Assembly (NCBI GenBank): GCA_963768575.1
Contig: CAVYIJ010000007.1
Span: 45,945-109,944 of the forward strand
Direction: 5' to 3'
Length of the DNA stretch: 64,000 nt
DNA from: an uncultured Halobacteria archaeon
Lineage (GTDB): Bacteria > Pseudomonadota > Gammaproteobacteria > UBA9214
In this document: one piece after another, positions 5,220 through 17,408 of the stretch
Layout: every line of letters starts with the position of its first letter
Numbering within the stretch: the first letter of the stretch is position 1
Notes under the pieces: generated by a model
Told to the model about the DNA's origin: nothing
Databases searched by the model: none
The model's input: only the letters and a program-made list of their open reading frames with translations
Translations under genes and position numbers: made by a program

Positions 5220-5617
5220 GGACAGCCATACCCGTCCAACGTGTTCCGCGCCCGGCCCGCGTGCAGGATTTTGCAGCGCCGTTGACCGGTTCTTTCACTC
5301 GAACTCCTTCAAATGACCATGTAACGACGGTCTGTCAATTTATTTAACACACATTTTAAAGCGGCTATAAGCTCATATCCCTCTGTTTTAAATAGATAAT
5401 ATCTGGCAAACGGCTAATTCGCACACTGATTGTCGGCACTCCCCGGGATTGTAATGACTGTATTTTTTACAGCCGCCCCGCTCCTTCTTTGACGCGTACG
5501 CCAGAAAAACAGCTAACTCACTCAATTGTAAACTTTATTTCCGTTGAGCATGGATATTGCATAAATTCACGATCAGGAGTCATACCCAGGGAAAAACAAC
5601 AGCTGGTGGCAATAACA

Positions 5618-6601
5618 ATGGATGATATGACAGCCGAAGCGGCTCGGGAAATACCAACCAGAGTAAACGGACACACCCTCATCGCCGCCAGCACATGCAT
5701 GCAGGGTGTGCTGCGCACCATCAACAAAATATCGAACAACGATGCCCCGGCAATCATTACCGGCGAAAGCGGCACCGGCAAGGAACTGGCCGCGCGCGCC
5801 ATACATGAACAATCCGCGCGCAGGGATGGCGCCTTCATTGCAGTCAATTGCGGGTCCCTGCCCGCCGGCCTGATCCAGTCTGAATTGTTCGGCCACATGA
5901 AGGGCGCGTTTACCGGCGCACACAGTGACCGGATCGGCAGGATCGAAGCGGCGGACAAGGGAACGATCTTTCTTGATGAAATCGGTGATCTGCCCGTCGA
6001 TCTGCAAGTCAACCTGCTGCGTTTCCTGCAGGAAGGCGTCATCGAGCGTGTCGGCAGCGCGGATTCGATACCGGTTGATGTGCGCGTACTGGCAGCCACA
6101 AACATCGACCTGGAGGATGCCATAAAGCAGGGACGGTTTCGGGAAGATCTTTACTACCGCCTGAATGTATTGCCGGTCGAGTTGCCGCCCTTGCGTGAGC
6201 GAGACAAGGATATCGAACAACTCGCCATGCATTTCTTTGCGGAATTCACCCGCAACAAAAAGACCAGGGCGCGTGGGTTCAGCACTTCAGCGCTTTCGGC
6301 AATGAATGCCTATCACTGGCCCGGCAACGTCCGTGAACTGATCAACCGCGTTCGCCGGGGCATTGTGATGTGCGACGGTCCGCAGATTACACAGGAAGAC
6401 CTTGAACTGAACGGCAACATCCACGAGCATCCCGCGAAGACCCTGGCCGAGGCGCGCCGCGAATCGGAGCGCAGCGCGATTAAGGAAGCGCTGATGTGCT
6501 GCCGCAACAACGTCTCCGAGGCAGCACGCCGGTTGAGAGTCTCGAGGGTTACCCTGTACCGCCTGATTGACAAACACGGCCTGAAAAGAAGCCTGGTATA
6601 A
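5618..6601 (+). CDS. Sigma54-dependent enhancer-binding protein (AAA+ and Fis HTH) with no N-terminal sensor domain
   Basis: GESGTGKE, ELFGHMKGAFTGA, FLDEIGDL, FREDLYYRL, WPGNVREL, C-terminal HTH; start could be 5489 (TTG) or 5618 (ATG). Confidence 0.93.
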   Translation: MDDMTAEAAREIPTRVNGHTLIAASTCMQGVLRTINKISNNDAPAIITGESGTGKELAARAIHEQSARRDGAFIAVNCGSLPAGLIQSELFGHMKGAFTGAHSDRIGRIEAADKGTIFLDEIGDLPVDLQVNLLRFLQEGVIERVGSADSIPVDVRVLAATNIDLEDAIKQGRFREDLYYRLNVLPVELPPLRERDKDIEQLAMHFFAEFTRNKKTRARGFSTSALSAMNAYHWPGNVRELINRVRRGIVMCDGPQITQEDLELNGNIHEHPAKTLAEARRESERSAIKEALMCCRNNVSEAARRLRVSRVTLYRLIDKHGLKRSLV

Positions 6602-6732: not shown

Positions 6733-7985
6733 GTGAAAACGATGTCGAATCGAGTGATCAATAATTCTGTCCTGTTTGGCCTGTTACTGTGTTCCGGCCA
6801 GGTGCTCAGCGCCGACGGGGGCGTGGATACAAGACTGGATGCGCTTGAGAAAGTCATTACAGAACAGGCAGATACATTAGAGCAGCAGCGCCGGGAGATC
6901 CGCCGGCTGCGCCAGTCCATCGACGGGACGTCTGCTACCAACAGGCAGGCGAGCGGCGAGGAGCTGCCCGTGTCGGGACTTGAAGGGATGCGCGCGGGAG
7001 CGGCCCCCACACCGGTCGGCCAGGCGCCTGAAGAGAAACGCAAGGCCCCTTCCAGCCTGCTGTCATTGCCCGAGGATGTGGGCGGCGTGTTGACCGCGCA
7101 GGGCAAGCTGGTGGTGGAACCGAGCACCTCGTTCTCCACTTCCCAGCTCAACCGCTTCACCTTTCGCGGTATCGAGATCATCGATACCGTCCTGATCGGC
7201 ATCGTGGATGCAGAGGATGTCGACCGTGATATGTACACCGCGACGTTGACCGGCCGCTACGGCCTGACCAACCGCATCGAGCTGGAAGCGAAGCTGCCGT
7301 ACATCTGGCGTGACGACCGGCTGACCGCAACCATCCCGAATGTCGCAGGCACGGACGTCGATGTATACACGAGACCAGGAAGGCAACGGCATCGGCGACA
7401 TCGAACTGGCCGCCCATTACCAGATCAACCAGGGCGCCAATGGCTGGCCCTTCCTGATCGGCAACCTGCGTTACAAGTCGACCACGGGTGAAGGTCCGTT
7501 CGATGTCACGCGCGATGCAGGCGGCATTGAGACGGAACTGGCAACCGGCTCCGGCTTTCACTCCGTCGAAGGCCAGCCTCACCGTGCTGTATCCGACCGC
7601 ACCGGCGGTACTGTTTGGCAACGTCGGTTATCTCTTCACCAAACAGGACAGTATCAACAAGATGATCGGCACCAATTACGTGGGGAATGTCGACCCAGGC
7701 GATGCCGTGCGTACGAGCTTCGGTATGGCGTATTCCGTGAACGAGCGCCTGTCCTTTACCCTCGGTTACAAGCATGATTTTATCTTTCAAACCGATACAG
7801 TTATTGGTAGCAGTCCGGCCAGTGCCGTGACAGTGCATCAGGCCGACCTCGACGTGGGCTCCTTTCTGTTCGGCTATGGTTTCCAGTTGACCCCGAAGCT
7901 GGGCATCAATCTAAACGTGGAAATAGGCGCTACGGACGATGCGCCCGATGCAGCGGTGACGGTGCGTCTCCCCTACAGCATCTAG
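6733..7985 (+). CDS. fapF: FapF-like outer-membrane beta-barrel exporter, interrupted by two apparent +1 frameshifts (~7365, ~7571)
   Basis: Signal peptide, coiled coil LDALEKVITEQADTLEQQRREIRRL, TLTGRYGLTNR, GIGD, ELATGSG, PAVLFGN, C-terminal IGATDDAPD..TVRLPYSI, matching FapF motifs; spread over ORFs 6733-7491, 7340-7777 and 7488-7985. Confidence 0.8.
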
Positions 7986-8427: not shown

Positions 8428-9111
8428 TTAGCGTGGTGTTGACGCAGCGCGGACTGAGCGACCCAGCGTCCCGGCGAACACCGAGTTGCGAGCAGCTTCG
8501 ACATACTCGGTGAAATTCCTTATGGTGATATCCACTTCGAGTTGATTGCTGAGATTCTGGTCGTTGCTGTTTGTGACCAGGGCGCTGACAATACTGTTCT
8601 GCGTCAGCTTTTCAAGCACCGCCGTAAAACCGTCCGAATTACCGATGATAATGCCACCTGTGGCATCCGCCAATCCGGCAAGGTCAACGCCAGGCAGCAG
8701 GTTACCGAGGGTTGTACCCGCCGTACCGCCAACCAGGTGAACCGGGGCGGCAATACCGGGATCGGTGGTAAGTACATTGCTGGTCTGGTCAAATCCACCG
8801 GACGTGTTCAGGGAGTAGACCGCTTCACGGATATAACCGTTTCCGGTAGTGCGCAGGTTCACGCCAAAGCTGACGTCCAGCCCTGCGACCCTGAGGCCAC
8901 CACGCATGTTTTCCATTTCGCCCTCTTCGAGTGCGCCGAACTGCTCCATCGCCGCGCCCGGATCGGCAAACCGGTCACCGTCCAGCCGGGTGGCGGACGC
9001 CGGCAGTGCGCTGCTGCTCGTCACAACCGGGAACAGCGCCGCAAGTAGCAGTAATCCCGTTAAACAAGCCCGGCTTTTGCACACGGTTGATGTGTATCGG
9101 TCGCGCGGCAT
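8428..9111 (-). CDS. FapE-like secreted accessory protein
   Basis: Signal-like N-terminus, LEEGEMENMRGG motif, Asn/Gln-rich C-terminal strand motif (ALVTNSNDQNLSNQLEVDITIRN); last gene after C39 peptidase. Confidence 0.6.
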   Translation of the reverse strand: MPRDRYTSTVCKSRACLTGLLLLAALFPVVTSSSALPASATRLDGDRFADPGAAMEQFGALEEGEMENMRGGLRVAGLDVSFGVNLRTTGNGYIREAVYSLNTSGGFDQTSNVLTTDPGIAAPVHLVGGTAGTTLGNLLPGVDLAGLADATGGIIIGNSDGFTAVLEKLTQNSIVSALVTNSNDQNLSNQLEVDITIRNFTEYVEAARNSVFAGTLGRSVRAASTPR

Positions 9112-9112
9112 A

Positions 9113-9898
9113 TTAACGACCCTGCTCGTTTCTGCCCGGCAGTGACAGGGTGAAGGAGCTAATACTTGATCGATCGACGCCCTCGGCGAGGGGGGAATCA
9201 GGCCAGCTGCGCCAGTCTTCTATCGCATTGAAATTCGCGCGCGCGACCTCGATATTGTTTTTTGCCGCCAGGATAGCGCCGTTCCACATGCCTTCGAAGA
9301 CTTCCCGGCTGACAACCGCCGTTCCGGCCGCCGGGTCGCCGACAAGTACGCGCTCACCCTCGATACCCTTGATGACGACGAAATGCTTGTAGCCCTTGGT
9401 ATTGATAACGGTGATGCCGGGAACCCCGATTTTCATGAACTGGTCCAGGGTCATTCGAAAACCGCCGGCATTCAGGCCGCGGCTGTCGAGGTAATGCTTC
9501 ATGTCGAGCATGGAAAAACCCTGGCTCTTTATCTTTTTCTTGTTACCCACCTTGAACATCGCCTCGAACACCTTTGCTTCGGGTGTCGGCATGTCGTAGT
9601 GGTAAGTCAGCAGGGTGGCCAGTGCCGCGGAACCACAGCTGTAGTCGTACTGTTGTTGTATGACCGTGTCCCAGCGTGCTTCCTTCTTGCTTTCCACCTT
9701 GAGCTTGAAATCACCCCCGCCAAAGCCGGGAATGGCCAGCGCGCCGGCATGCGCAGGAAAACAGCCCAGCTGGATGACTGCGAATATTGCCGGCAACAGA
9801 AATAACGAAGGCCTGGCAAGTGCCAGGCCGAATAGTCCAGTAATGGCAGACTTATTGCTGCCCTGTTTTTGTGTGAAAATGTTTTGCACAGCAAACAT
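9113..9898 (-). CDS. fapD: Stand-alone C39 family peptidase (FapD-like)
   Basis: QQYDYSCGSAALATLL (Cys), YKHFVV (His), VGDPAAG (Asp); hydrophobic signal; no fused ABC transporter. Confidence 0.88.
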   Translation of the reverse strand: MFAVQNIFTQKQGSNKSAITGLFGLALARPSLFLLPAIFAVIQLGCFPAHAGALAIPGFGGGDFKLKVESKKEARWDTVIQQQYDYSCGSAALATLLTYHYDMPTPEAKVFEAMFKVGNKKKIKSQGFSMLDMKHYLDSRGLNAGGFRMTLDQFMKIGVPGITVINTKGYKHFVVIKGIEGERVLVGDPAAGTAVVSREVFEGMWNGAILAAKNNIEVARANFNAIEDWRSWPDSPLAEGVDRSSISSFTLSLPGRNEQGR

Positions 9899-9920: not shown

Positions 9921-10298
9921 TTATTGCAAGTTAATAGTGACGCCAATTGCATTGTTGACGGCGTTGTTGTTGCCTGTGACCACGTTGAACAGGCCGACAC
10001 CGCTGAACTCACCCAACGCACCTTCCGCGAAGCTGGCATTGCCGCTCGTCATCGTGCCGACATTGAAACTGCTGCCTGTGATGCTGGCACCCAGGTCCTG
10101 GTTGCTCTGCACGGTGATTGTGGTGCTGCCTTCACGTCCCCGCACGCCACCGAGATCATCACCCTCGATACTGGTGAAGTTGCCGAATGCCTCTGCAGTG
10201 GCCGGTTCCCCGGCGTATAACGGCCCGGCCGTGATCAGTACCATACTGCTGATGGCGGCCAGTACTACCTTCGAGATCGAACTGATTTTGTCCATCAT
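9921..10298 (-). CDS. Small secreted Fap-repeat protein (FapB-like candidate nucleator/minor subunit)
   Basis: Sec signal (PLYA), DDLGGVRG motif, C-terminal GNASFAEGALGEFSGVGLFNVVTGNNNAVNNAIGVTINL resembling the Fap repeat. Confidence 0.7.
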   Translation of the reverse strand: MMDKISSISKVVLAAISSMVLITAGPLYAGEPATAEAFGNFTSIEGDDLGGVRGREGSTTITVQSNQDLGASITGSSFNVGTMTSGNASFAEGALGEFSGVGLFNVVTGNNNAVNNAIGVTINLQ

Positions 10299-10367
10299 AT
10301 CAACCTTCCTGAATTCGAGTTGTTTTCTTCGCTACTTTTATGAATTCGGTTTCAACCCCTGCAAACC

Positions 10368-10395
10368 GGGGCCGGCAGACACTGCCGCCGGCCCC
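10368..10395 (-). promoter_or_regulatory. GC-rich intercistronic stem-loop after the two Gly-rich genes
   Basis: GGGGCCGGCGG-CAGTGT-CTGCCGGCCCC on the minus strand, 20 nt after the stop at 10416, no strong U-tract. Confidence 0.55.
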
Positions 10396-10415
10396 TTCTT
10401 GCTGCAGTGTTGCTG

Positions 10416-11900
10416 TTACAGACCGCCGTTGGTGGACACACCGCCGAATGAACCGATGTTCACTCCGCTGGCTGCACCGATCGACACGCCACCCAGGGTC
10501 CCGTTGTAGAGACCGGCTGATGCGTTGATGTTGGCGATACCACCGAGTACACCACCTGCGGTGCTAACGGTAGCCGTATCGGTGGCCAACTGGCCGCCGG
10601 AAGCAAGACCGCCATTACCACCGGATGCACCGCCACCGGCGTTGCCGCCGAAGCCGCCGAATCCGCCGGCGCCGCCGTCTGCACCATCAGCAGTGTTGGT
10701 GCCATTGTTGGTTTCACCACCAACTCCACCGTCACCACCGATCGCACCATTGGCATTGTTGTTGCCGTTGCTGGTGCCGCCACCATTGCCGCCGGCTCCC
10801 GCATTGGCCATGTTGCCGCCGTTGCTGGTGCCGCCACCGTTGGCGCCGTCACCGGCATCACCACCATTGGCATTGTTGCCGCCGTTGCTGGGTCCGCCGC
10901 CGTCACCGCCGTCACCGCCGTCGGCCGTTACAACGATATCACCACCGTCGCCGCCGCCGTCGCCGCCGCCGTCACCGCCACCCAGGTTGCTGCCGCCGTT
11001 ACCGCCGTTGGCATCACCTGAACCAGCTGCAACAGAGCCGCCGTAACCGCCTGCACCACCTTCACCACCGTCAGCATCGCCGTCGGTCGTGGTGATCATG
11101 CCGCCGTCACCGCCCTCGCTGCCGTAGGCATTACCGTAGCCTTTGGCTTTTCCACCTTCACCGCCATCGCCACCGTGACCGCCGTTGGCATCGCCGTAGG
11201 TGTCGATGTCACCACCATCGCCACCTTCATAGCCGTCACCGCCGTCAGCAAGACCGCCGTCACCGCCGTCACCGCCCGAATAACCGTCACCGCCATAGGC
11301 AGCACCGATATCGATGATGGACTCACCGGTTACAGTCGCATCCAGCGTCTGGTAGGAAATGACTTCCTTGATGGTGTTGAATGCCTCACTGTTGGCCTCG
11401 GCAGTTCCACCTAGACCACCCTCCGAGTGACCACCGAAACCACCATCGCCGCTATCGCTGCTCTGGGTGCTATCTGCAGTGCTGCCCTGGTCAGTGGTGT
11501 TGTCGTTGGTCTGAGTCGACCCGGTGTCTGCCAGATCACCACCATCACCACCTTCATCGCCACCACCGTTGCCCGATACAGCGTCATCGTTGGTCTGGAC
11601 TGAGGTGTTGTTATTGTTGCTGCTGGAGGTGCTATCGCCCGTGGCGTCGCCGCCATCGGCGCTTCCGCCGCTACCGCCCTCACCACCATCGGCGTTGGCT
11701 GTTGCAGTGGAATTGACGGTGTTGGACTGCCCACCGGACATCCCCACGTAACCGTTTAAAGTTTCAGCCGCTTGAGGTGCTTCATAGACCTGGCCACCGT
11801 TAGACAAATTGAACGAATTAACGGGGTTAGCCTGTGCACCTGTCGCTGTGAACATGCACATCGACACGGCTGAACTCACAAGTAGAGTTTTGAATTTCAT
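10416..11900 (-). CDS. Secreted Gly-rich (GGxGGx) putative fibre subunit B with Fap-like C-terminal repeat
   Basis: Sec signal AQA|NPVN; long GGD/GGN/GGA tracts; C-terminus GGIANINASAGLYNGTLGGVSI; RBS AGGAG. Confidence 0.85.
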   Translation of the reverse strand: MKFKTLLVSSAVSMCMFTATGAQANPVNSFNLSNGGQVYEAPQAAETLNGYVGMSGGQSNTVNSTATANADGGEGGSGGSADGGDATGDSTSSSNNNNTSVQTNDDAVSGNGGGDEGGDGGDLADTGSTQTNDNTTDQGSTADSTQSSDSGDGGFGGHSEGGLGGTAEANSEAFNTIKEVISYQTLDATVTGESIIDIGAAYGGDGYSGGDGGDGGLADGGDGYEGGDGGDIDTYGDANGGHGGDGGEGGKAKGYGNAYGSEGGDGGMITTTDGDADGGEGGAGGYGGSVAAGSGDANGGNGGSNLGGGDGGGDGGGDGGDIVVTADGGDGGDGGGPSNGGNNANGGDAGDGANGGGTSNGGNMANAGAGGNGGGTSNGNNNANGAIGGDGGVGGETNNGTNTADGADGGAGGFGGFGGNAGGGASGGNGGLASGGQLATDTATVSTAGGVLGGIANINASAGLYNGTLGGVSIGAASGVNIGSFGGVSTNGGL

Positions 11901-11920
11901 GACCTCTTCTCCTGTTCAGC

Positions 11921-13198
11921 TTAATTGCCGATGTTGACGTTGGAATGAGCGGAAATGGATACGCCACCCAGCGTCGCGTTGTACAGCCCGGAAGAAACGT
12001 TGATGTTGGCAATACCGCCGAACGTACCGGCAGCCGTAGTCACGTCAACCGCACCGGTTGTCAGCACACCACCGGTTGCGTCACCGCCGTTACCACCAGC
12101 ACCGCCGCCACCGCCTGCACCTGCTGTACCACCGTCACCACCGGCACCACCGGCACCCGCATTGGCGATGTTGCCGCCATTGTTGGTCGTACCGCCGCCA
12201 GCACCGTTACCGCCTGCAGCACCATCGGCAGTGTTACCGCCGTTGTCGGTCGTACCACCGGCACCGCCGTCTGCGCCATCAGCAACATTCGTGCCGTTAC
12301 CGCTTGTACCACCGGCACCGCCAGCGCCACCGTTACCGCCATCCGCAGCGTTGGTGCCGTTGTTCGGCGTACCGCCGTTACCGCCATTGCCGCCGTTACC
12401 GGCCACTGAATCACCGCCGTAGCCGCCATTGGCACTACCGTCGCCGGTGGCCGAACCGCCGGAGCCGCCCGAGCTGCCTTCACCGCCATCGGCATCGCCG
12501 CCGCTGACACTGATGGTGCCGCCGCTGCCGCCGTAACCGGCGTCTGCGTCACCCTTGCCCTTGGCATAACCGCCAGCACCGCCTTCACCGCCGTCGCCAC
12601 CGTTGGCATCGCCGTTGGTCGTGATGGTGCCGCCGTCACCGCCGTGGTCTCCGTCACCGCCATCGGCATCACCGCCGTGACCGCCATGGCCACCGGATGC
12701 ACCGTTACCGCCGGTTGCACCACCAATCGTGATGCTGGCACCGGTAATCTGGGCTTCCAGGGTCTGGTAGGAAATGACTTCCACGATATCGTTGAACGAC
12801 TCACTGTTGGCTGTTGCCGTGCCGCCAGCGCCGCCCGTGGAGTTGCCGCCTGTACCACCGGCACCGGCCGTGCTGGTCTGATTACTCGTGGCCGAATCGG
12901 TCTGGGTCGTGCCATTGGTGTTTGCCTGATCGGACTCAGCAGCACTGCTGTTGGCCTGATCACTGCTGTTGCTATTGCCGCTTGTGGCATTGCTAGAACC
13001 GCTTGCCTCACCACCGTCAGCATCTCCACCATCACTCGCGCTGCCGCCATAGGCATTCGCTGTGGCTGTTGAAGTTACGTCGTTGTGTTGACTACCTCCG
13101 AAATTGAACTTGTTAGTCGGGTTGGCAGATACGCCGCAGGCGTAACTGATGCCAATTGCCAGTGCTGACACCGTCAGCAGTTTCGTTTGCTTTTTCAT
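11921..13198 (-). CDS. Secreted Gly-rich (GGxGGx) putative fibre subunit A, paralog of 10416-11900
   Basis: Sec signal VSA|NPTN; shares STATANA, ANSE.FN.I.EVISYQTL.A..TG.SI and GGIANIN.S.GLYN.TLGGVSI blocks with the neighbour; RBS GAGGAG. Confidence 0.85.
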   Translation of the reverse strand: MKKQTKLLTVSALAIGISYACGVSANPTNKFNFGGSQHNDVTSTATANAYGGSASDGGDADGGEASGSSNATSGNSNSSDQANSSAAESDQANTNGTTQTDSATSNQTSTAGAGGTGGNSTGGAGGTATANSESFNDIVEVISYQTLEAQITGASITIGGATGGNGASGGHGGHGGDADGGDGDHGGDGGTITTNGDANGGDGGEGGAGGYAKGKGDADAGYGGSGGTISVSGGDADGGEGSSGGSGGSATGDGSANGGYGGDSVAGNGGNGGNGGTPNNGTNAADGGNGGAGGAGGTSGNGTNVADGADGGAGGTTDNGGNTADGAAGGNGAGGGTTNNGGNIANAGAGGAGGDGGTAGAGGGGGAGGNGGDATGGVLTTGAVDVTTAAGTFGGIANINVSSGLYNATLGGVSISAHSNVNIGN

Positions 13199-13404: not shown

Positions 13405-13421
13405 AGCAAGGAATGTACCAA
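13405..13421 (-). promoter_or_regulatory. Sigma54 (-24/-12) promoter for the Gly-rich/Fap operon
   Basis: Minus strand TTGGTACATTCCTTGCT: GG-N10-GC spacing with TTGC at -12; about 200 nt upstream of the first gene; sigma54 EBP in the locus. Confidence 0.75.
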
Positions 13422-13635: not shown

Positions 13636-14207
13636 CAGTACATATTTGTGATGTCGATTGCGTACACGAACGACCTGGAACGGGTCAAATGACATTGTTT
13701 CAACATTGTTACACCTGACAATATTGAAACTACGGCGACCACGTTTTCGGGACGAATCCGGCCACCATTACCCTGCACGCCTGACGAACTGGACGGGAAT
13801 GTGCACCAGTGTTGTTACACATTCCCTTTTATTTACTCCGAAAATGAGCGGATCGGGCTTAAATTCCTGCCTGTTAAGAATCCTGACGCAGGCCGCCTGT
13901 GGGCACCCCGATACCTGGTAACGGTTGCGGCAATGAAACGCAGCCCACTACGCGGGCATCCGGTTCGACGCCTGTCAAAGGCAATAATTGCTCGATGGCT
14001 GGAAGTTATAAAAGATGTCGCATAGTATGGTTGAATGATGTACGGCAAGTACAACAACAGCCTGCTAGTGGCGAAAACACCGCCGCACGGCTGAAATCTT
14101 GCCACAGTACTCAAGGCAATGTTGTCAGGCTGCCTGAGGAACCGATTGGGATTATTTTGATGCGAAGTCACTACTGTTGTTTTGTAATGGATCGTGGTGC
14201 GAGTTGG

Positions 14208-17200
14208 ATGCACACGGAAAAACGGGCTGTTTCCTGTACCTCACTGTGGCAAGCCTTTTTCTCATTACTGCAAAATAATAATTTTTTCCGGTCAGTAATC
14301 ATGCCTGCACTGTTGCTGGCAGGCCTGCATGGGTGCGCTACCCAGATGCAGATGGGCGATCAAAATACGCTCGTCACGGCAGCCACCGTTGGCGACAACA
14401 CCAAGGTAGCAAAACTGCTCGGCCAGGGAGTCGATGCAAATATCCAGCTGAATGATGGCACCACGGCATTGTTCATGGCAGCACAGCAAGGACACACAGA
14501 TACCGTCACGTTGCTGCTCAATGCCCAAGCCAACGTCAACGTGCTGGGTTATCGTGGCGCGACACCGTTACTCATTGCCGCTACGACCGGTCACACGGAC
14601 ATCGTCGACCTGCTCGTCAAGCGTGGCGCCACCGTGGATATTCCACGTGAAGATCAAGCCACGCCCCTGTTCATGGCGGCACAGGGCGGTTATGTGAACG
14701 TCGTGAACCTCCTTATAGATGCAGGCGCATATCCGGACAAGCTCGCATACAAGGGAGCAACTGCGTTGTTCATTGCAGCCCAGAACGGACATCACCCGGT
14801 TGTCCAGGCACTTGCAGTCAAAGGCGCAGATGTAAACCTGGGCCTGGAGGACGGCACGACACCGCTCCTCGCAGCAGCGCTGAAAGGACACATGAGTGTC
14901 AGCAGGGTTCTGCTGGAGCATGGCGCCAGGCCGGATACTGCAAATAACCGCGGCATGACACCAATGCTGGCTGCTCGTCAGGAAGGTCACCCGGAATTGT
15001 CGGCATTACTCGGCAGGGCACTGGCATCGCCCGCGCTGGCAGGCACCAAAACCGGCCCGGCACCGGAAATCCAGTCCGCCCCGGTTGTTGAGGAAACGAC
15101 CGGTGCAGTTGCTGCAATGTCATCCGGTCAGCCCGTGCCTGCTGAAAGCGCCGAAACGCGAGTCGTGGCCGAGGTAAGACAAATACCGGGTACAAACACT
15201 GATGCCGCGTCAACGGCAACAACTGCTTCTGCCGCGTCAACGGCAACAACCGCTTCTGCCGTGTCAACGGCAACAACCGCTTCTGCCTCGACAAGCGGCA
15301 CGACACCGCATGAAGCGGCCGTAAAAACGGAAGAATCACCTGCCGGCACAGACCAACCGTCATCCGGCCCAATGCAGGCAGCAACAGTGACGACCGTAAG
15401 CGGCGTGCCTGCTTCAAAGGATAACGACAATACCGCGCCGGTACCGGCACCTGTCACAGAACGGGTAACCGACAGCACTGCGGGCACCGACAAACAAGTT
15501 GCACCGTCCACCGCCGCCTCATGGCGACCTGAAACACCGGCGTCGCAGGTAGCCGGTGACACTGCACCAAAAGACAGCCAGCCCACCGTCAAGCCGTCCG
15601 CTCCGGAACCAACAACTGTCGCGCAGCAGGCGGCCGCCCGGAAAGCCGGTGACGGACCGCAAGCTGCACCGGCAACCGCCGCAACCTGGCAGCCTGAAAC
15701 ACCGGCGTCGCAGGTAGCCGGTGACACTGCACCAAAAGACAGCCAGCCCACCGTCAAGCCGTCCGCTCCGGAACCAACAACTGTCGCGCAGCAGGCGGCC
15801 GCCCGGAAAGCCGGTGACGGACCGCAAGCTGCACCGGCAACCGCCGCAACCTGGCAGCCTGAAACGCCGGCGTCACAGGTAGCGGCCGACGCCGTTCCAG
15901 AAGTCAAACAGGCCGCCGGCAAGCCGGCCGCTCCGGAACCGACCGCGGTCGCGCAGCAGGCGGCCGTCGTGAAAAGCGGTGATGGACCAACAACTGCACC
16001 GGCAACCGTCGCCACGCAACCGGCTGAAAAGCCGGTGCAGCAGGCATCCGGCAAAACCATGCCTGCAACTCCGCAACCGGCACCGAGTAAAATCACCGTA
16101 GCCGGCAAACCGGCTACTGACGAAAAGATTGTGTATATGAAGCCAACGCCGCCCGAGCCCGTGAAAACCGGCGAACGTACCGAACGAGAGGCAGCGACCG
16201 TTGGCGCTGCGCCTGCTGCCGCGAATAAACCAGTGCAAAAAAAGAGAGACGATGGACCCGCTACCATAACAAAACCGGCAATAAAAACTCCGCCGGTAGA
16301 ACTGGCACAGGAAAATTCCGCGAGTATGGAAAATACCATCGCGACAGCTGAACGTGCCGACGAGGACAACACCAGCCCGGTCAGCAGTGCCGTCAGCAAA
16401 AGGTCGACCGACTCACCGGTCGCTTCCAAAACAGAAACAATCGTTGCGAACGTAGACAAGAATAAGGATGAACCGCGCACCGAACCTGCGCAGGCACCGG
16501 ACCTTGCAACTACCGGAACCGCCAAAACCCGCCTGGCTGCAATCGAACTCGAGAGCGACGATCTACAGGTGCGCGCCACAACCAGCAGAAAAATTCTTCG
16601 CGAGGAAACAACTCCCGCAGAGACAGTTAAAAAAGTAATAAAGGGACTGGACGAGGACGAGGAATCCGGACTGGCGGATACCGGTGCCGCGACAATCCAG
16701 AAGCAGTTCACCCGTAAAAATTTCGATGCGAACAAGCATGTGAAGCCGATGCAGGGTAACTTCATCGTCATAAAACCAACGGATATCTATACATCACCTC
16801 AATGGCATGCCTCCAGGTTCAGGAGCCTTGCATCCGGACGTAAAGTAGAGGTCAACGGTTACGTGCAGGGCGGAAAATGGTTTCGTATCAAGTATGCCGG
16901 CGGGGATGGTTACGTCCCGGTACGGCGGCTGAGGGAGATCAGGGACGAAACAACCGGGGAACCGGCCTCCGCGGAGATAAGTGCTGAAACCCTGAAGCGG
17001 AAAATAAACGTTCTTCCGGAAGGTACTTCGGAGCAGCACTACAAATTTGCCATGAATATGTTCCAACTCGGTGAATACACAACGGCTACCCAGGCATTTT
17101 CGGAATTTGTTGAATTACATCCGCATGACTCGAAGGCGCCCAGCGCCATTTACTGGCAGGGCATGTCGTACTACGTCAAGCAAAACTATTCGCAGGCTGC

Positions 17201-17408
17201 TTCCAGTTTCATGCTTCTCTACAAGAGTTTCCCAAGGGACAATAAAGCCGCGGAGGGCCTGCTCAAGTTGAGTAATTCCCTGCACGCACTGGGCAAGCAG
17301 GAAGCCGCCTGTACAGCCCTGGAACAGTTGCGTAATGAATACCCGGGATCCTATCTACGCCTTAAACGTGAAATATATAACAGCGGGGCGGATGCGGGAT
17401 GCTCCTGA
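14208..17408 (+). CDS. Putative lipoprotein: 7 ankyrin repeats, long Ala/Pro/Thr linker, SH3-like domain, CpoB/YbgF-like TPR domain
   Basis: LLLAGLHGC lipobox-like (Cys codon 14334); TPL/TALF.AA..GH..VV.LL repeats; GKWFRIKYAGGDGYV; YWQGMSYY..QNYSQAA...KAAEGLLKL. Start uncertain (13899-14301). Confidence 0.8.
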   Translation: MHTEKRAVSCTSLWQAFFSLLQNNNFFRSVIMPALLLAGLHGCATQMQMGDQNTLVTAATVGDNTKVAKLLGQGVDANIQLNDGTTALFMAAQQGHTDTVTLLLNAQANVNVLGYRGATPLLIAATTGHTDIVDLLVKRGATVDIPREDQATPLFMAAQGGYVNVVNLLIDAGAYPDKLAYKGATALFIAAQNGHHPVVQALAVKGADVNLGLEDGTTPLLAAALKGHMSVSRVLLEHGARPDTANNRGMTPMLAARQEGHPELSALLGRALASPALAGTKTGPAPEIQSAPVVEETTGAVAAMSSGQPVPAESAETRVVAEVRQIPGTNTDAASTATTASAASTATTASAVSTATTASASTSGTTPHEAAVKTEESPAGTDQPSSGPMQAATVTTVSGVPASKDNDNTAPVPAPVTERVTDSTAGTDKQVAPSTAASWRPETPASQVAGDTAPKDSQPTVKPSAPEPTTVAQQAAARKAGDGPQAAPATAATWQPETPASQVAGDTAPKDSQPTVKPSAPEPTTVAQQAAARKAGDGPQAAPATAATWQPETPASQVAADAVPEVKQAAGKPAAPEPTAVAQQAAVVKSGDGPTTAPATVATQPAEKPVQQASGKTMPATPQPAPSKITVAGKPATDEKIVYMKPTPPEPVKTGERTEREAATVGAAPAAANKPVQKKRDDGPATITKPAIKTPPVELAQENSASMENTIATAERADEDNTSPVSSAVSKRSTDSPVASKTETIVANVDKNKDEPRTEPAQAPDLATTGTAKTRLAAIELESDDLQVRATTSRKILREETTPAETVKKVIKGLDEDEESGLADTGAATIQKQFTRKNFDANKHVKPMQGNFIVIKPTDIYTSPQWHASRFRSLASGRKVEVNGYVQGGKWFRIKYAGGDGYVPVRRLREIRDETTGEPASAEISAETLKRKINVLPEGTSEQHYKFAMNMFQLGEYTTATQAFSEFVELHPHDSKAPSAIYWQGMSYYVKQNYSQAASSFMLLYKSFPRDNKAAEGLLKLSNSLHALGKQEAACTALEQLRNEYPGSYLRLKREIYNSGADAGCS
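15207..15287 (+). repeat. 3 x 27-nt coding tandem repeat (ASTATTASA)
   Basis: gcgtcaacggcaacaacYgcttctgcc three times, the third starting gtg. Confidence 0.85.
15528..16022 (+). repeat. 165-nt (55-aa) coding tandem repeat, two identical copies plus one diverged
   Basis: cctgaaac.ccggcgtc starts at 15528, 15693 and 15858. Confidence 0.9.

Follow-up and report, generated by a model that had tools for sequence, protein, structure and literature searches.

A core shared by a small protein and large glycine-rich proteins of a Fap-related locus is interrupted by a loop of variable length

Introduction

The closest described relatives of the locus analysed here are the Fap systems of Pseudomonas and Aeromonas, whose product is a formic-acid-resistant amyloid fibril. 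FapF is a trimeric 12-stranded outer-membrane barrel with an N-terminal coiled coil. The proteins FapB and FapC contain three imperfect repeats with the motif GN-x-G-N-x2-AG-x2-NQQ-x-N (PMC5557850). FapC is generally understood as a conserved amyloid core that exposes variable linkers (Dueholm et al. 2013, PMC3792158). Homologues of fapD and fapF have been noted to co-occur in other phyla and outside classical fap operons, with no cargo named (2018 review, PMC6173800).

Here we describe a locus with FapD-like and FapF-like components in a 64,000-nucleotide stretch of contig CAVYIJ010000007.1 (assembly GCA_963768575.1, positions 45,945 to 109,944), from an uncultured organism placed by GTDB in the Gammaproteobacteria (UBA9214). 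This whole stretch is called the window in the following. According to the list of open reading frames (ORFs) of the window, five consecutive minus-strand ORFs encode two large glycine-rich proteins, A and B, a small protein, a protein of 261 amino acids (aa) and a 227-aa protein. The original prediction, made from the letters of the sequence, held that A and B are the core of a small “Fap-like” protein split open by a “polyglycine” insertion. As a conjecture, it read the core as a polymerising beta-arcade, the insert as a loop displayed on the fibre and the small protein as a nucleator or cap. Our family comparisons show at the sequence level that a C-terminal core of ~65 residues, rich in Gly, Asn, Ser, Thr and Val, occurs once in each of A, B and the small protein, and they confirm as a real feature of these sequences that the core is interrupted at one point in A and B by a Gly-rich insert.

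Results

One core, contiguous in the small protein and split in A and B

The subunit genes and the parts of the two large proteins are listed below with their window coordinates.

11921-13198, minus strand: large Gly-rich subunit A, 425 aa (ORF; paralogue alignment; orthologues in related loci)
12722-12793, minus strand: core half 1 of A, residues 136-159, NDIVEVISYQTLEAQITGASITIG; aligns to residues ~58-81 of the small protein (hhalign; coordinates from hidden Markov models, HMMs)
12068-12721, minus strand: Gly-rich insert of A, residues 160-377, 218 aa, 46% Gly
11924-12067, minus strand: core half 2 of A, residues 378-425, VLTTGAVDVTTAAGTFGGIANINVSSGLYNATLGGVSISAHSNVNIGN
10416-11900, minus strand: large Gly-rich subunit B, 494 aa (ORF; tandem paralogue of A)
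11304-11378, minus strand: core half 1 of B, residues 175-199
10593-11303, minus strand: Gly-rich insert of B, residues 200-436, 237 aa
10419-10592, minus strand: core half 2 of B, residues 437-494
9921-10298, minus strand: small subunit, 125 aa (ORF; family of 249 clusters)

Protein A starts with a Sec-type signal peptide and a conserved mature N-terminus (ANPxNKF), followed by an S/N/T/G-rich region, core half 1, the insert and, at the C-terminus, core half 2. In the small protein, a signal peptide, a spacer and a DDLGGVRGR motif precede a contiguous core (residues 58-125, nucleotides 9924-10127). The three ORFs, the segments and the residue numbers given originally were correct: SYQTLEAQITGASITIG occupies residues 143-159 of A and VLTTG... 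starts at residue 378, leaving the insert of 218 aa, and the matching segments of B lie at residues 182-199 and from 437, with an insert of 237 aa. It had also been stated that the insertion is at the same point in A and B. This is true but is not independent evidence, because the two proteins are tandem paralogues, colinear over their full length and 59% identical with the insert counted in.

In pairwise BLASTP the small protein matched neither A nor B significantly (E 0.12 and 0.92), and therefore families were built for each side. When 1.84 billion representatives were searched with a profile of the small family, 249 clusters were returned, nearly all of 105-180 aa and each with a single contiguous match. 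Two small-family profiles were used, a close one of 46 unique sequences and a broad one of 147 sequences. Sequence searches with the large proteins failed: a 90-aa insert-deleted chimera of A gave three fragmentary matches only, and a homologue search with a full-length alignment of 23 large proteins was swamped by Gly-rich candidates and gave no match. The large-family homologues were therefore taken from loci, and the large-core profile was made from 26 insert-deleted large cores of contigs or genomes that carry the small gene.

With the close small family, hhalign produced a single alignment of 56 columns to the joined halves that spans the junction (score 34.5, E 2.7e-6), compared with a mean of 11.6 (standard deviation (sd) 2.7, maximum 24.4) in 200 column shuffles. 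Deleting the insert and aligning all three proteins had been proposed as a check, and with the broad family the insert-deleted cores gave a significant colinear alignment across the junction (score 47.8, E 3e-8, probability 95%, 61 columns). The broad family also matched each half alone and in register, the first with a score of 27.6 (3.5e-5, E or P; 20 columns) and the second with 25.3 (2e-4, E or P; 40 columns). The maxima of 100 shuffles each were 18.1 for the joined halves, 15.7 for the first half and 19.8 for the second. When the halves were put in swapped order, a single half was aligned at a time. The claim that the large proteins hold the core of the small protein, split by a Gly-rich insertion, is thus borne out by the insert-deleted profile alignment, by each half alone and by the shuffles.

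The long insert must be removed before such a comparison: against full-length A and B with the insert kept, the small profile aligned the first half alone (probability 8%) and failed on the second. E-INS-i alignment of the full-length long-insert proteins misplaces part of the second half into the insert, and it is the insert-deleted comparisons that can be trusted. The HMMs of the halves from the window's clade were too weak for distant large proteins with a short loop between the halves (E 0.2-0.7 only), so that profile-profile comparison was needed for these. The small family aligned to the short-loop large proteins with a probability of 96.5% (E 9e-10) and with a gap of 11-12 residues in the small protein at the loop. 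The short-loop proteins in turn aligned to the insert-deleted large proteins of the window's clade with a probability of 91.8% (E 7e-7, 71 columns), and here the loop coincides exactly with the junction left by removal of the insert.

These results also bear on the possibility that the likeness of small and large proteins is an artefact of composition, produced by low complexity rich in G, N, S and T, with the insert being the middle of an unrelated Gly-rich protein. The pairwise BLASTP values would fit such an artefact, as would the facts that HMMER alone yields sub-threshold matches only and that no large Gly-rich protein is among the best 150 matches of the small-profile search of the 1.84 billion representatives. 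However, the profile-profile scores lie 5 to 16 sd over those of column shuffles that keep the composition, and both halves align in register and in the correct order. The sub-threshold matches of each family model in plain HMM searches are almost all to the other family and lie at the expected positions. The short-loop relatives bridge both families, and the large and small genes are strictly linked. On the strength of the shuffles and the bridging relatives we reject the low-complexity artefact, which we regard as highly improbable.

The split point is a loop that varies in length

Both halves were present in all 26 distinct large proteins from related loci, separated by 186-606 residues with 35-49% Gly. 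The survey of the insert in homologues, which had been suggested together with the original prediction, revealed 0 to 606 residues at the same site and a composition that depends on the lineage. The loop at the split point has 0 residues in the small proteins, 8-23 in the distant large relatives and 180-606 in the window's clade, in locus L025 and in Cupriavidus. In the large protein of L021, which has a loop of 12 residues, the core is nearly contiguous (...LSEQDLDAEVTNISFG-GAGGNNGDDNRR-LRTGDISASGNAFQGFGGIHTASNSSGFG...). Other short loops have 12 residues (L023), 18 residues (L026), 8 residues (L027) and, in Photobacterium, about 23 residues with a Cys pair. The short-loop large proteins have their variable low-complexity region (S/D/N-rich) N-terminal instead. 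Because the loop lengths form a series of 0, 8-23 and up to 606 residues, the split point tolerates repeat expansion. The core lies at the C-terminus or at most 10 residues from it in 30 of 30 large proteins of the gamma-clade, and at or near the C-terminus in the distant ones.

In Photobacterium sp. DA100 (L031; NZ_CP119424.1), two large proteins of ~190-220 aa flank the small gene. Their loop with the Cys-Cys pair is Tyr/Gly-rich, and the second core half, GAFSGASGINIAGQNAGNNSLVQQ, looks the most Fap-repeat-like of all.

A model organism, Cupriavidus metallidurans CH34, has a comparable locus on its megaplasmid (L030; NC_007974.2, 64292-74882). The large protein of this locus has 511 aa and is Gly/Ala/Ser-rich, and the small protein has 162 aa and contains LDDVRGG. 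A C39 peptidase and a protein of 456 aa that contains EESRGG are also encoded, and the gene of the FapF-like barrel lies on the same strand. The insert of the 511-aa protein, of ~296 residues, was placed by inspection only. BLASTP between the Cupriavidus small and large proteins gave E 0.075, and the single-sequence core gave nothing against the small profile in a run that, unlike the other comparisons, did not use the -M 50 option. The split core in Cupriavidus rests on inspection and synteny. The C-terminal parts of the small and large CH34 proteins share NYVxxGxF...AAGxxxxxQNSGxxxLxQ and are closer to each other than to those of other lineages.

The term polyglycine for the insert does not hold, since the insert is ~46% Gly with ordered repeats. 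Its parts in A and B are GGX runs, with peaks of the Gly autocorrelation at lags 3 and 6, three units containing GDA(N/D)GG and four units of 18-21 aa with the pattern TxNGxNxAxGGxGGxGG. Tandem repeats of the DNA with periods of 63, 18 and 9 at 12082-12401 match the insert. In Motiliproteus, whose large subunits (L017, L018, L020) have 877-934 aa, the insert is made of a 10-aa unit (GGTGGMADGx / NGGTGGNANA) in dozens of copies, with a Gly autocorrelation of 0.37 at lag 10, and in L025 it has GT and GS dipeptide runs. Since the repeat units are lineage-specific, we read the insert as a fast-evolving tandem-repeat expansion and not as a conserved folded domain. The GGN-rich repeats also give rise to long ORFs of 150-330 aa on both strands within 10460-13056, for example at 12061-13056 (minus strand, out of frame) and at 11955-12422 (plus strand, a Pro-rich mirror of the GGN-rich strand). 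These overlapping ORFs were rejected as spurious by-products and are not genes.

Gene order, secretion machinery and regulator

The remaining features of the locus in the window are the following.

9113-9898, minus strand: periplasmic C39 cysteine peptidase, FapD-like, 261 aa (Pfam Peptidase_C39; NCBIfam C39_FapD)
8428-9111, minus strand: 227-aa protein at the FapE position (family present in every locus reaching this position)
6733-7985, plus strand, convergent with the subunit operon: FapF-like outer-membrane barrel (NCBIfam FapF; tblastn)
5489-6601, plus strand, upstream of the FapF-like gene: sigma-54-dependent transcriptional activator, 370 aa (Pfam)
13406-13420, minus strand: candidate sigma-54 promoter TGGTACattccTTGC, ~210 nucleotides upstream of A, with one mismatch to TGGCAC-N5-TTGC

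The gene order is conserved in the window and in 30 related loci of Gamma- and Betaproteobacteria, and in this set the C39 peptidase gene follows the small gene wherever the contig extends that far. All 24 loci that reach upstream have a large gene upstream of the small gene, with both halves in 20 and, at a contig end, with the C-terminal part only in four; the count excludes the upstream proteins of L022 and L024, the length of the latter being identical to that of L023. Where the full order is visible, it comprises 1-3 large genes, one small gene, the C39 peptidase, a 180-240-aa protein and the convergent FapF-like barrel, and a VpsR-type sigma-54 activator often comes next in loci that reach further. 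Exceptions in orientation are the barrel gene of Cupriavidus and the activator gene of Photobacterium, which lie on the strand of the subunit genes. The carriers are uncultured Gammaproteobacteria from sediment and groundwater, a metagenome-assembled genome of the Thiohalobacteraceae, Aidingimonas, Marinobacter, Motiliproteus, Photobacterium and the betaproteobacterium Cupriavidus. Sequence near-identical to the window is present in sediment metagenomes.

The 261-aa protein has a signal sequence by inspection and matches Pfam Peptidase_C39 (8.9e-22). Its best NCBIfam match, C39_FapD (1.1e-40, 139 bits), is below the equivalog cut-off of 330, so the peptidase is FapD-related rather than equivalent to FapD; the match to FilB is 1.1e-33 (117 bits, cut-off 475). 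Fragments of the barrel in the window match NCBIfam FapF with 8.6e-13 and 1.6e-18, and the full-length barrels of related loci match this model with 118-151 bits (cut-off 700). The FilC match is 1.9e-12 (47 bits, cut-off 630). As judged from the FapD-like peptidase and the FapF-like barrel, the machinery is related to Fap. Compared by tblastn with an intact 407-aa orthologue, the barrel gene of the window is spread over three frames because of two +1 frameshifts, one near 7366 and one near 7570. Related sediment contigs have one base fewer at 7367 and at 7573, a difference that would bring the gene back into a single frame. Either the gene carries two real inactivating insertions and is a pseudogene, or the assembly contains two errors.

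The 227-aa protein has a canonical double-glycine motif (EEGEMENMRGG) ~70 residues from its N-terminus, followed by conserved N- and C-terminal blocks. E-(L/M)-x-x-(M/L)-R-G-G is present in 16 of the 18 aligned members of the family, the other two being cut off upstream of the motif. As a double-glycine leader we regarded a segment whose last two residues are G-G (or G-A/G-S) and whose positions -4, -7 and -12 are hydrophobic, a pattern that the 227-aa protein shows in L-E-E-G-E-M-E-N-M-R-G-G. In the fap operon of Aeromonas caviae, where FapB, C, D, E and F are recognised by NCBIfam, FapE has ELAHLRGR at the equivalent place. Between the 227-aa family and Aeromonas FapE only the motif aligns (17 columns, P 0.009), and the NCBIfam FapE model does not match the 227-aa protein. 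FapE is reported to lose its N-terminal ~70 residues and is suspected to be a substrate of FapD (PMC5557850). Judging from the motifs, the likeliest job of the C39 peptidase would be cutting the 227-aa protein and perhaps the small protein.

The sigma-54 activator matches Pfam Sigma54_activat (5e-69) and HTH_8. Its orthologues, of 460-480 aa, have a VpsR-type N-domain, identified in L001-L004 and L025. The 370-aa ORF of the window starts inside the protein, and residues 1-146 of the 480-aa orthologue of L001, which include the VpsR-type N-domain, are unmatched in the window at E<=1e-3. The activator ORF (region 5220-6601) may thus represent another frameshift or a truncation. In Vibrio, VpsR-type regulation is linked to the biofilm matrix, and by analogy the regulator fits a biofilm-matrix product. 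The candidate promoter TGGTACattccTTGC is suggestive because the activator gene is close by, but it is unverified: counts of the sigma-54 pattern in the window are at chance level, and a search of 20 related loci with a strict pattern found none before their first large gene.

At 13899-17408 on the plus strand, a 1169-aa ORF has N-terminal ankyrin repeats, C-terminal TPR (YfiO-like) repeats and, in its middle, a long P/A/T/Q-rich region with near-identical tandem copies of ~50 aa. The operon of L001 is flanked by an ankyrin protein and then a TPR protein, and that of L004 by an ankyrin protein. The 1169-aa protein may belong to the system.

The small protein and its family

The small protein is the most conserved component of the system, and its 36 close relatives have about 124 aa. 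In the broad family an L-x3-(R/S)-G-G pattern, which is of the double-glycine leader type, stands directly before the core. In the window the corresponding V-R-G-R is degenerate at -1. When the 147 sequences were compared with NCBIfam, a few members matched bacteriocin GG-leader models, six weakly matched chaperone_FapA (best E 0.004), one matched a second FapA model and two weakly matched FapE. In the NCBIfam scan the small protein of the window itself had no match to the FapA model. P0114 (375 aa) fuses a small-family protein and a FapD-like C39 peptidase in one product, and P0061 (207 aa) joins a DnaJ J-domain to a small-family core. Both could be real fusions or artefacts of gene calling.

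The FapA matches raise the question whether the small protein could be a FapA-like periplasmic chaperone or inhibitor that mimics the core, pairs with the large subunits strand by strand and blocks their premature assembly. FapA has 152 aa and is intrinsically disordered (bioRxiv 10.1101/2023.07.18.549541), and the small protein is similar to it with its ~125 aa, its signal peptide and its predicted disorder. Its high conservation and the six weak matches to the FapA model also speak for this role. On the other hand, these matches are far below the cut-offs and comparable in number to those with the FapE and GG-leader models. FapA is dispensable and often absent from fap operons (PMC6173800), whereas every locus found contains the small gene. 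Its GG-type leader points to processing that is coupled to export, and the natural fusion to the C39 peptidase in P0114 likewise argues against a chaperone. We consider the FapA-like role unlikely. Nevertheless, to read the small protein as a processed minor subunit or as a periplasmic chaperone is no less plausible than to read it as a nucleator.

Discussion

We propose that the locus encodes a Fap-related extracellular assembly system with a cargo different from FapB and FapC, to which we assign a probability of about 45%. All subunits would be exported by Sec, as suggested by reading their N-terminal sequences. The periplasmic C39 peptidase would cleave behind an R-G-G-type motif in the 227-aa protein and probably also in the small protein, and the chains would cross the trimeric FapF-like barrel in an unfolded state. 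Once outside the cell, the cores would stack into a cross-beta or beta-solenoid-like filament whose Gly-rich loops and N-terminal low-complexity regions point away from it and form a hydrated coat like that of a bottle brush. Assembly would be started or ended by the small loop-free paralogue, a minor subunit comparable in this to FapB or CsgB. In favour of the proposal we count the homology of the core across the split with the three-way profile links, the series of loop lengths, the lineage-specific repeat units, the conserved gene order, the FapD-like and FapF-like matches, the double-glycine motifs together with ELAHLRGR in Aeromonas FapE, the marginal likeness of the second half of the small core to a Fap repeat and the VpsR-type regulator.

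Several points weigh against this proposal. The NCBIfam models for FapB and FapC, which do recognise FapB and FapC of Aeromonas, matched neither A, B and the small protein nor the 147 small relatives and the distant large relatives. PDB sequence searches with both small-family profiles gave no meaningful match, and FapC was not found. AlphaFold2 monomer models showed no secondary structure and had a predicted local distance difference test (pLDDT) score of 51.7 for the small protein (37 sequences) and 34.7 for A (2 sequences). These low-confidence models are uninformative and lend polymerisation no support. As a low pLDDT is expected alike from a subunit that folds upon assembly, from a disordered chaperone and from a shallow alignment, the models do not discriminate between the readings. 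With one core unit per subunit, a loop of 200-600 residues would be placed on every layer or two of the filament, which would be sterically demanding. The small protein of the window has R-G-R and not R-G-G, so its cleavage is uncertain. Finally, the barrel gene is frameshifted twice in the window, and the system may be inactive in this genome unless these are assembly errors.

The likeness of the core to Fap repeats is marginal. The second half of the small core scored 20.3 against nine Fap repeats (hhalign, P 0.0017), just above the maximum of 19.9 of 100 shuffles, the best visible match being to repeat 1 of Aeromonas FapB (ALSNIRGSMGVNMVAGNNN vs ALGEFSGVGLFNVVTGNNN). With the three Pseudomonas FapC repeats only, hhalign gave nothing for the cores, and tblastn of Fap repeats against plasmids gave no match. 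No Pfam or NCBIfam family matched A, B, the small protein or the 227-aa protein. By these comparisons the subunits appear to be a family separate from FapB and FapC, with a distant relationship at most. The description “Fap-like” is therefore apt for the machinery, with its FapD-like and FapF-like components, and fails for the subunits, which have no FapB/FapC match and a marginal likeness to Fap repeats.

The C-terminal position of the core could also be understood if the core were a secretion or anchoring domain that is recognised by the FapF-like barrel, with the passenger forming a surface coat of monomers that stay tethered to the cell. The functional passenger, a hydrated or cation-binding surface, would then consist of the Gly-rich loop together with the S/D/N-rich region at the N-terminus, and the small protein, having no passenger, would plug, prime or regulate the pore. 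Besides the place of the core at or near the C-terminus in the gamma-clade and in the distant large proteins, this interpretation accords with the variable parts, which make up most of the mass and evolve quickly, with the disordered monomer models and with subunits outside the FapB and FapC families. However, a mere targeting signal is not expected to tolerate an insertion of 600 residues in its middle with both halves conserved. The composition of the core and its G-x-G-N / T-G-N-N-N motifs resemble the amyloid repeats of curli and Fap (motif: PMC5557850), and the FapF substrates in Fap are fibre subunits (PMC5557850). We regard this interpretation as unlikely.

Returning to the proposed assembly system, we speculate further that it is an undescribed branch of the Fap type. 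In this branch single-unit cross-beta blocks, with one beta-arc loop that takes 0 to ~600 residues of tandem repeats, would form “bottle-brush” filaments with a Gly-rich functional surface, and a C39-processed loop-free paralogue would prime or terminate assembly. In this complete form the idea is rather doubtful; if true, it would mean that there are natural bottle-brush filaments whose Gly-rich side chains form a functional surface. We found no description of this system or of its cargo family in the literature on FapF-like, Fap-like and Fil systems. What appears to be new is the cargo family, the single intra-unit loop with its range of 0-606 residues and the clear GG motifs. The display-scaffold idea contained in the original prediction is not new and matches the accepted reading of the FapC linkers (PMC3792158).

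The locus family offers a defined cargo for FapD/FapF-type systems outside the classical fap operon, and a clear candidate cleavage motif for a periplasmic C39 peptidase, whose substrate in Pseudomonas is still unsettled. The natural series of loops shows which loop of the core tolerates insertions, which bears on the engineering of display on bacterial fibres. Cultured carriers exist in Cupriavidus metallidurans CH34, Aidingimonas halophila, Marinobacter, Motiliproteus coralliicola and Photobacterium and make these questions testable.

Compared with known glycine-rich proteins, the GGX triplet periodicity in parts of the insert resembles the (GGX)n domains of mycobacterial PE_PGRS proteins and the polyglycine-II bundles of snow-flea antifreeze proteins, a parallel that serves as a lead only. 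In contrast to these, the insert has no sequence-family match, and other lineages use 10-aa or GT-dipeptide repeats. The Acinetobacter Fil locus resembles the present one in that its C39 peptidase (FilB) and the FapF/FilC-like barrel were matched, but the scores were weaker than those of the Fap models and far below the cut-off, and no Fil model besides FilB and FilC matched the locus. With curli (CsgA/CsgB) the system has in common a major subunit and a minor paralogue, as well as a G-x-G-N type turn motif that is alike by inspection only, whereas genes of the CsgG/E/F type are absent from this locus.

The comparison with Fap of Pseudomonas and Aeromonas is the closest. Both systems have subunits with Sec export, which is predicted here, a periplasmic C39 peptidase and a FapF-like outer-membrane barrel, and in both the protein encoded after the peptidase gene has an L-x-x-L-R-G-(G/R) motif, as in Aeromonas FapE. 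A major subunit with large variable regions stands beside a smaller, more uniform paralogue, like FapC and FapB, and N/G/Q-rich turn motifs are found in both. The differences are that all Fap-model scores are far below the equivalog cut-offs here, that 1-3 large genes stand in tandem with no clear FapA and no separate FapA-like gene, and that the FapF-like gene, which lies on the opposite strand and runs towards the subunit genes, is accompanied by a sigma-54 activator. While FapB and FapC have three imperfect repeats with the variable regions between them, the proteins described here have one core unit with the variable region inside it. Like the linkers of FapC, which are proposed to face the environment and to tune the properties of the fibre, the inserts are length-variable, lineage-specific low-complexity segments on a conserved core; in contrast to these linkers, they comprise 0 to 606 residues at a single intra-unit loop, with 35-49% Gly and tandem repeats.

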